Shown here in pieces: positions 53,461 through 54,239 of a stretch of 64,000 nucleotides of DNA. The notes under the pieces are model-generated. The model was not told the DNA's origin and made no database searches. It worked only from the letters and a program-made list of their open reading frames with translations. A program made the position numbers and the translations under genes. Positions within the stretch are counted from its first letter, which is position 1. Each line of letters opens with the position of its first letter. Where the stretch lies: the NCBI GenBank assembly GCA_964016885.1, contig OZ024760.1, positions 22,630,001 through 22,694,000 of the forward strand, written 5' to 3'. This stretch comes from Eledone cirrhosa (Eukaryota).

Positions 53461-53923
53461 TATATATATATAAATATATATATATGAATAATATATATAA
53501 TATACATATATATACATATATACACACATATATATACATGTATATATACATGTATATATACATATATACACACATATATATACATGTATATATACATGTA
53601 TATATACATATATACACACATATATATACATGTATATATACATGTATATATACATATATACACACATATATATACATGTATATATATAAACGTATATATA
53701 TATATATATAAATAATATATATATATATATATACATGCACACATATATATATACATACACACATATATATATACATACACACATATATATATACACACAC
53801 ACATACATATATATATATATACACGTATATATTTATATATATAAACATACACACATACATACACATATATACACGTATATCAATGATATTAATAAATGGA
53901 AACTATATTTATAAAACCATATT

Positions 53924-53984
53924 TATTCTATTATATATATTTCAAGGGTACCAAAACTTTGGTACGCTCTCATCAGATAAAATA
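53924..53984 (-). ncRNA. Type I hammerhead ribozyme motif
   Basis: TATTTTAT-CTGATGA-[GAGCGTACCAA/TTGGTACCCTT]-GAAA-TATATA-TA-ATAGAATA. Confidence 0.85.
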
Positions 53985-54101
53985 CAAAATTTGTTTTATA
54001 AATTGTGACATATCCAGGAATCAGACCTTAACGGTCCAAGTTCCGTTTGGATAGTTAGTGTCTGATTCCTGGATAGGTCACTATTTATAGAACAAACTTT
54101 G

Positions 54102-54162
54102 TATTTTATCTGATGACAGCGTACCAAACTTTTGATGCCCTTGAAATATATATAATAGAATA
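54102..54162 (+). ncRNA. Type I hammerhead ribozyme motif (stem II mutated)
   Basis: TATTTTAT-CTGATGA-CAGCGTACCAAACTTTTGATGCCCTT-GAAA-TATATA-TA-ATAGAATA. Confidence 0.7.
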
Positions 54163-54239
54163 AATATGGTTTTATAAATGTAGTTTCCATTTATTAACAT
54201 CATTGATATTATACTCCAGAAAACTGTCGAGCGCTTATT

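Follow-up and report, generated by a model that had tools for sequence, protein, structure and literature searches.

Penelope-like retroelements (PLEs) of the Hydra clade combine a C-terminal GIY-YIG endonuclease with RW(K/R), DKT, CxCX5C, and CxxC/CxH motifs, use (TA)n as the target, and carry a sense hammerhead near the 3' end (Craig et al. 2021, PMC8557442). Penelope-13_HM, listed in the same paper, has a hammerhead on each strand and an inverted 5'-truncated copy. Insertions of endonuclease-bearing (EN+) PLEs contain head-to-head, inverted, 5'-truncated pseudo-LTRs (pLTRs) with a one-sided tail (Arkhipova et al. 2013, PMC3846280; Craig et al. 2021, PMC8557442), and an Inr-like TCACT in the pLTR, as in rotifer Penelope, and an asparagine-rich stretch between RT and endonuclease have been reported for them (PMC3846280). 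Drosophila Penelope has an internal promoter (PMC2377424). Minimal PLE hammerheads consist of a type I core, a long helix II, and a short palindromic helix III (Cervera and de la Pena 2014, PMC4209133); ribozymes with this short palindromic stem III are thought to need dimers and have low in vitro activity, and opposite-strand pairs 100-700 bp apart in Schistosoma were ascribed to truncated PLEs (PMC4209133). Animal non-LTR retrozymes are short, non-coding, AT-rich, and PLE-tied, with type I hammerheads on the same strand of head-to-tail tandems from which a circular monomer is released (PMC7229834; bioRxiv 10.64898/2026.07.22.740005). In vitro, the Anolis PLE protein of Poseidon_Ac acts on both strands of an AT-rich target, which it cleaves and extends, RT starts at two fixed internal RNA sites bounding the tail, and hammerhead cleavage is not needed (Frangieh et al. 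2024, PMC11167929).

The foldback analysed here lies in a 64,000-nucleotide stretch of the Eledone cirrhosa genome (contig OZ024760.1, 22,630,001 to 22,694,000), hereafter the window. Its parent element has the features listed above for Hydra-clade PLEs. Elements of that clade are generally shorter than 3 kb, a typical rather than strict size with listed families reaching 3045 bp, and have tails of 30-40 nt (PMC8557442), whereas the one decayed full-length unit measured here is ~3.7 kb with a long 3' UTR, and the tail is 87 nt. In the hammerhead, stem III is an all-A/U palindrome and the C.C of stem II is invariant, which sets it apart from the Hydra motifs listed in that paper; the element is therefore not Hydra-1_Obim. 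The features of EN+ PLE insertions recur here, but the ORF-less stub is the commonest form and many arm pairs are offset or non-overlapping, which fits self-priming poorly. The hammerhead resembles the minimal PLE type in another host and family, with a helix I of 8 bp. In contrast to retrozymes, the unit has one hammerhead per strand, head to head; since the two motifs are on opposite strands, a retrozyme dimer cannot form and monomer excision is impossible, and neither same-strand head-to-tail hammerheads nor propagation of a constant structure was found for it. Two fixed starts bounding the tail, an AT-rich target, extension of both strands, and dispensable cleavage link the proposed mechanism to Poseidon_Ac, which belongs to another clade and whose ORF starts inside the hammerhead (PMC11167929), whereas the ORF here starts downstream of the tail.

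Foldback and hammerhead motifs in the window

Positions 53878-54208 form a long inverted repeat within a TA-rich microsatellite and fold into a single 331-nt rod of -208.2 kcal/mol (shuffles, -56.0 +/- 4.6 kcal/mol; z -33.5; 0/100 equally stable), with 149 of the 163 aligned arm positions matching. These values bear out the nearly complete self-complementary unit inside (TA)n that a sequence-only reading of the window had described. The extent it gave, 53878-54208, holds for the foldback and not for the end, because a tail remnant continues to ~54236 and most relatives have the full 87-nt tail. The features are collected in Table 1. The tail-less arm is 88-100% identical to pLTRs adjoining the parent ORF.

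Table 1 Features of the foldback and of related copies in the window.
Feature	Position	Strand	Remarks
Tail-less arm: complete short pLTR	53880..54055	-	Inferred RNA start A at 54055; end ~53880 abuts (TA)n
Type I hammerhead, intact-looking	53924..53984	-	Core 53976-53970; stem I 8 bp; predicted cut after 53932
Head-to-head junction	54049..54060		2-nt GT overlap at 54054-54055 common to both arms
Tail-bearing arm: pLTR 5'-truncated by ~23 nt	54054..54207	+	Carries 10/12 arm-to-arm differences
Type I hammerhead, complete core, damaged stem II	54102..54162	+	Predicted cut after 54154
Tail remnant, ~29 nt of the 87-nt tail	54208..54236	+	Remainder lost into (TA)-rich array
Sister-subfamily foldback	41650..42222		- tail-less arm 41650-41987 (interrupted); + arm ~41995-42141, predicted cut after 42088
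~190-bp dispersed repeat in sister - hammerhead	41716..41910		17-bp duplication 41699-41715 / 41894-41910
Solo tail-less arm, sister subfamily, with hammerhead	35140..35284	+	Predicted cut after 35238
Other (TA)n foldbacks	26311-26433, 47901-48013, 51443-51648, 51725-51929, 52324-52482
Other (TA)n foldbacks, continued	48838-48920, 32369-32515, 51020-51238, 29769-29840

The differences between the two arms argue against a read fold-back artefact, and the foldback layout occurs at 40/40 scored places in the genome. Contigs from four public sequencing runs do not span the window junction; a 12-nt bin is uncovered there, which proves nothing either way. With 10-12 arm differences the window copy is among the most decayed, and three copies have identical arms, indicating that some foldbacks are recent. 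The differences of the window copy are concentrated on the tail-bearing arm; across 31 copies they are evenly distributed (66 vs 65). The subfamilies share the tail start ACTC...GAGTGC (window 54208-54236; L007:1837-1925), a potential small hairpin beside the tail-less end, for which folding gave weak and inconsistent structures.

Both strands of the window were scanned with a hammerhead descriptor, which gave five hammerhead-like matches. Stem I has 8 bp in four of these, at 35190 (+), 42040 (+), 54110 (+), and 53976 (-). An Rfam scan of the window gave no match at gathering thresholds. Helices and positions below follow hammerhead numbering. In the foldback, both strands hold the CUGAUGA...GAAA...UA core and the 8-bp stem I, and the + cut site given by the sequence-only reading is the one returned by the scan. 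Its statement that a complete type I hammerhead lies on each strand is correct for the cores, not for the + stem II, which carries four substitutions including the closing pair. The - stem II consists of 3 bp, a C.C mismatch, and 7 bp, with a palindromic, all-A/U stem III. In constrained folding, the + hammerhead reached -2.0 kcal/mol and the - hammerhead -11.1 kcal/mol; in a separate fold test, z was 0.17 and -2.33, respectively. The AATAAA said to follow each hammerhead is present (54159-54164 on +, 53927-53922 on -), where it overlaps the 3' strand of stem I; one AATAAA is expected by chance in ~11% of 54-nt stretches of such composition. This putative poly(A) signal is conserved, yet it doubles as stem I.

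Among genomic copies, the full core was kept in 43/53 arms of a sample anchored outside the core. In 31 distinct motifs, stem I was paired in 30-31 at eight positions, with position 7 varying, and stem II showed two-sided changes at three pairs, although the sequences are related and such independent changes are few. Divergence among copies was 10/765 in the core vs 179/8989 outside it, in a sample biased to intact cores. We infer that the hammerhead is a passenger in the stub, and was kept by selection in the parent lineage, where its activity would likely depend on a dimer or a protein. All 31 distinct motifs (L179-L218 and the window) have an invariant C.C mismatch as the fourth pair of stem II, next to pairs that change; it may be a site of tertiary contact or of contact with a protein. 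At 35930-36003 (-) lies a further hammerhead-type motif, more distantly related, in which stem II is longer, stem III is the same all-A/U one, and stem I looks decayed.

Whichever way a read-through transcript crosses the foldback, the antisense arm is made before the ribozyme arm, and the rod is more stable than the ribozyme fold by 77-78 kcal/mol. On this modelling, the ribozyme in read-through stub RNA is predicted to be locked off, not switched; folding thus speaks against the 'self-inhibiting switch' that had been suggested.

A whole-window repeat search was dominated by microsatellites. The sister-subfamily foldback is ~80% like the copy at 53878-54208. The sequence-only reading had seen the same layout at 41649-42140; the foldback itself stood, its centre is different, its - hammerhead is interrupted, and its full tail runs to ~42222. 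The interrupting ~190-bp repeat, which has a B-box-like motif and which we take to be a tRNA-derived SINE, was found at no fewer than 10 other places in the window (e.g. 14996-15398, 23972-24153, 32564-32934), with some copies head to head (13526-14014), and also interrupts the ORF in L064. At least nine other short foldbacks of unrelated sequence lie in or beside (TA)n, and none of those scanned had a complete hammerhead core. They may be stubs of further PLE families, ribozyme-less ones included. The segment 49512-50123 (-), without a Pfam match, has the look of a C-terminal nuclease region from a non-LTR retrotransposon. No RT/GIY-YIG ORF was found within the window by Pfam on 36 of 84 complexity-filtered frames and one added frame, the only hit being a sub-threshold C2H2 finger.

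Parent element and copies in the genome

When one arm plus the tail was used as the genome query, foldbacks, solo arms, and 7/30 loci with a common upstream body were obtained. Among eight extended loci, L064 has the make-up of a partial tandem and comprises a pLTR with the 87-nt tail, an ORF, a ~1.2 kb 3' UTR, and a second, tail-less pLTR; this one decayed unit is ~3.7 kb without its secondary insert. Its decayed ORF retains RT motifs, the asparagine-rich stretch, a CxCX5C linker, and a C-terminal YIG endonuclease. A tail-to-ORF search placed the window arm directly 5' of the ORF start in 14/20 loci, with a recurring tail-to-ORF junction, and in L072, L080, and L085 a foldback stands immediately in front of the ORF. 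The hammerhead lies in the pLTR, sense to the ORF, and the flanks of the copies indicate insertion into (TA)n.

The ORF pieces contain a YRDD motif, a YIG domain, RLRWR, and KSDKT; among 120 homologues, RW[KR] was present in 99 and DKT in 107. The endonuclease domain, translated with X at stop codons, was readable in 13/15 loci, where CxCX5C occurred in 13/13, CxxC in 11/13, and CxH in 11/13, and no CCHH was seen by eye. A total of 368 homologues of ~700 aa were obtained at E<=1e-20. Two of these are named; both come from molluscs, and one has GIY-YIG. The top homologue (P0001) matched PF01541 (GIY-YIG; E 1e-5); in the ORF pieces themselves, Pfam detected neither RT nor GIY-YIG. The longest open frame among the 150 listed had 556 aa, and no intact full-length ORF was seen. 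By its motifs, the parent of the pLTR arm qualifies as an EN+ PLE of the Hydra clade. These results confirm the suggested link to PLE pLTRs that can be inverted, and the linked RT/GIY-YIG ORF that the sequence-only reading had advised looking for exists elsewhere in the genome. Related RT/GIY-YIG frames of other Hydra-type families lie beside or inside copies (L066:6244-7338 (-), L065:5599-6878 (-)), and in L066 an RT of the window's PLE family is joined to a different endonuclease end.

In the 3.0 Gb genome, the unit query gave 2866 candidates. Forty places were scored, and all matched on both strands, with 86-95% identity apart from the window itself. In 30 aligned loci from 27 places, the arms were near-identical and the centres differed, and nearly all continued to a tail ending in (TA)n (87 nt in 6/7 copies measured). 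The exact 26-nt core motif had 1374 genome matches, and a 32-nt pLTR motif common to the sister subfamilies had 23,625 exact matches (reversed control 0 for each).

Two samples were used for the arrangement of the arms. For the first, exact matches to the 26-nt core were followed in order along contig C1, irrespective of locus shape, which gave 87 loci, or 85 after removal of two segmental duplicates. The reference used, L061, holds an inversion of its own at -120, which bears on the 'body' orientation in this sample. Adjacent head-to-head pairs with varied junctions accounted for 36/85 loci, of which 27 joined an arm with the tail to one without and nine had one arm cut short. Among 16 tail-less arms that look solo, three have a very short piece of inverted tail. 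The second sample comprised 40 regions anchored outside the core, other subfamilies included. Ten of its 11 opposite-facing combinations paired tail with no tail, with the arms 0.2-3.5 kb apart, and the 11th joins arms of separate insertions. Exceptions to the one-tail rule were L020 and L153, with a tail on both arms, and L240, with a tail on neither.

Variants were analysed in 31 of the 36 long-armed foldbacks, five with ambiguous tail status being dropped. Arm divergence was 3.5% within a copy vs 5.8-6.2% between copies, whichever side was compared, and left and right lineages were absent. Minor variants common to both arms of a copy numbered 81, vs 21.8 expected (max 42; 2000 permutations). 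Subfamily variants of the foldbacks were also present in body-linked pLTRs. Taken together, these results indicate that foldbacks were made repeatedly from several source subfamilies.

Origin of the head-to-head arms

We consider it very probable that the foldback is two pLTR end pieces of a Hydra-type PLE, lying head to head in (TA)n, likely from one insertion in which both nicked strands primed RT. Each outer arm end lies at one of two fixed points separated by 87 nt, and an insertion usually has one of each, at arm spacings of 0.2 kb and of 3.5 kb alike. The inner ends are variable, with an accumulation near a YTC-ACT motif: 17/65 tail-less arms start within -3..+4 of the motif and 17 more within +5..+25; among non-body tail-less arms, 34/50 start within -3..+25; and 7/36 junctions hold the start motif in full. 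The Inr/DPE consensus used for comparison of the starts includes RGWYV at +28. YTC-ACT is common to the subfamilies and 12/38 distinct starts match RGWYV at +28, the motif having been part of the search pattern; a promoter-like Inr/DPE spacing may be taken from this as a lead only.

In the proposed mechanism, the RNA would start at the YTC-ACT motif of the pLTR, as judged from DNA ends only. The enzyme of the element would cut both strands of (TA)n; one of them would prime at the tail end, its partner 87 nt upstream of that point. Each cDNA would then run toward the RNA 5' end, stopping there or earlier, and the two cDNA 3' ends would anneal on 1-15 nt of microhomology, followed by fill-in. 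Priming in the first pLTR of the transcript would yield stubs only, which would explain the abundance of stubs. Target-site duplications are unreadable in (TA)n. Hammerhead-cleaved RNA as the template was considered and rejected: 0/127 arms start at +119..+127, in a core-anchored sample where only the partner arms inform, and the 43 core-retaining arms of the second sample run through the core.

An alternative that keeps the same parent derives the inverted arm from self-priming (snap-back) of one nucleic acid strand, for which an antisense strand may have been the template; trimming of one end by the endonuclease would then account for the one-sided tail. Snap-back with endonuclease trimming is the hypothesis of Arkhipova et al. 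(2013), argued from palindromes at head-to-head junctions (PMC3846280). The near-perfect palindromic junctions of L092, L153, and L105 fit it, and it explains both the variants present in both arms and the two-tailed L020 and L153; gene conversion between the arms could likewise produce variants common to both arms of a copy. Against self-priming, the offset between arm starts exceeds 25 nt in 17/36 pairs and can go either way, and in 8/36 the tail arm has no overlap with the other arm, so that neither arm of such pairs is a snap-back copy; the window arms themselves are offset by ~23 nt with a 2-nt overlap. Self-priming is thus an unlikely general origin of the pairs.

Far less likely is a foldback that propagates itself as a non-autonomous unit, with a retrozyme- or viroid-like rod RNA mobilised in trans and the antisense arm gating the ribozyme. 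The sequence-only reading had favoured such a viroid-like family copied as a unit, and had set beforehand a genome-wide search to see whether the same centre is multicopy. The window junction occurred once in the genome at <=1 mismatch, and its junction class, the 2-nt GT overlap, had eight exact copies belonging to two subfamilies and differing beside the junction; junctions also varied among the sampled copies, essentially the outcome named as contrary to the proposal. The abundance of the core motif and the eight-copy class speak for such a unit, and since the tail on which priming depends would be present in read-through RNA, rare re-mobilisation is possible. Weighing against it are the absence of left/right lineages, the stability of the rod over the ribozyme fold, and the lack of the head-to-tail same-strand hammerhead repeats that retrozymes need. 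An RNA-editing footprint was also absent from the arms, with no A-to-G excess (11/65; matching T-to-C 6/66).

The lowest probability falls to an assembly artefact, or a MITE-like DNA transposon, with a chance likeness to hammerheads, which the short, fully inverted, TA-flanked form and the lack of a public contig over the junction would suit. It is refuted by the continuity of pLTR and ORF. Also against it are arms that are the pLTR of an RT element, asymmetric, tailed ends, solo arms and long forms, full cores in most arms sampled outside the core, paired stems, and two-sided stem II changes.

Meaning for PLE insertion

The inverted pLTR with a one-sided tail, standard for EN+ PLEs, and opposite-strand hammerhead pairs are already in print; only the 87-nt tail, the long UTR, and the pair statistics are less ordinary. 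The foldback is ordinary debris and no new viroid-like element, and its one use is as a record of PLE insertion. If read-through transcription reaches the stubs, they are also a possible dsRNA source, with a large pool of hairpin RNA predicted.

Returning to priming by both nicked strands, we lean toward the wider reading in which the stubs preserve, on the scale of the genome, a fossil record of twin target-primed RT, with two fixed RNA sites 87 nt apart and cDNAs joined 3' to 3' in place of a separate second-strand step. A literature search that took in few subscription papers found no quantification of twin priming from PLE stubs, and the origin of tandem and inverted PLE structures has been named an open question (PMC8557442). 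With more than 23,000 exact copies of the pLTR motif, the one-tail rule, and free inner ends, the question of PLE inversion becomes testable by counting, and the stubs give exact coordinates for the putative promoter and the two putative priming sites. If the twin-priming reading is true, thousands of offset or non-overlapping pairs would settle the origin of the inverted repeats and one-sided tails of PLEs, against self-priming, and the stubs would map the promoter and both priming sites of a Hydra-clade element.
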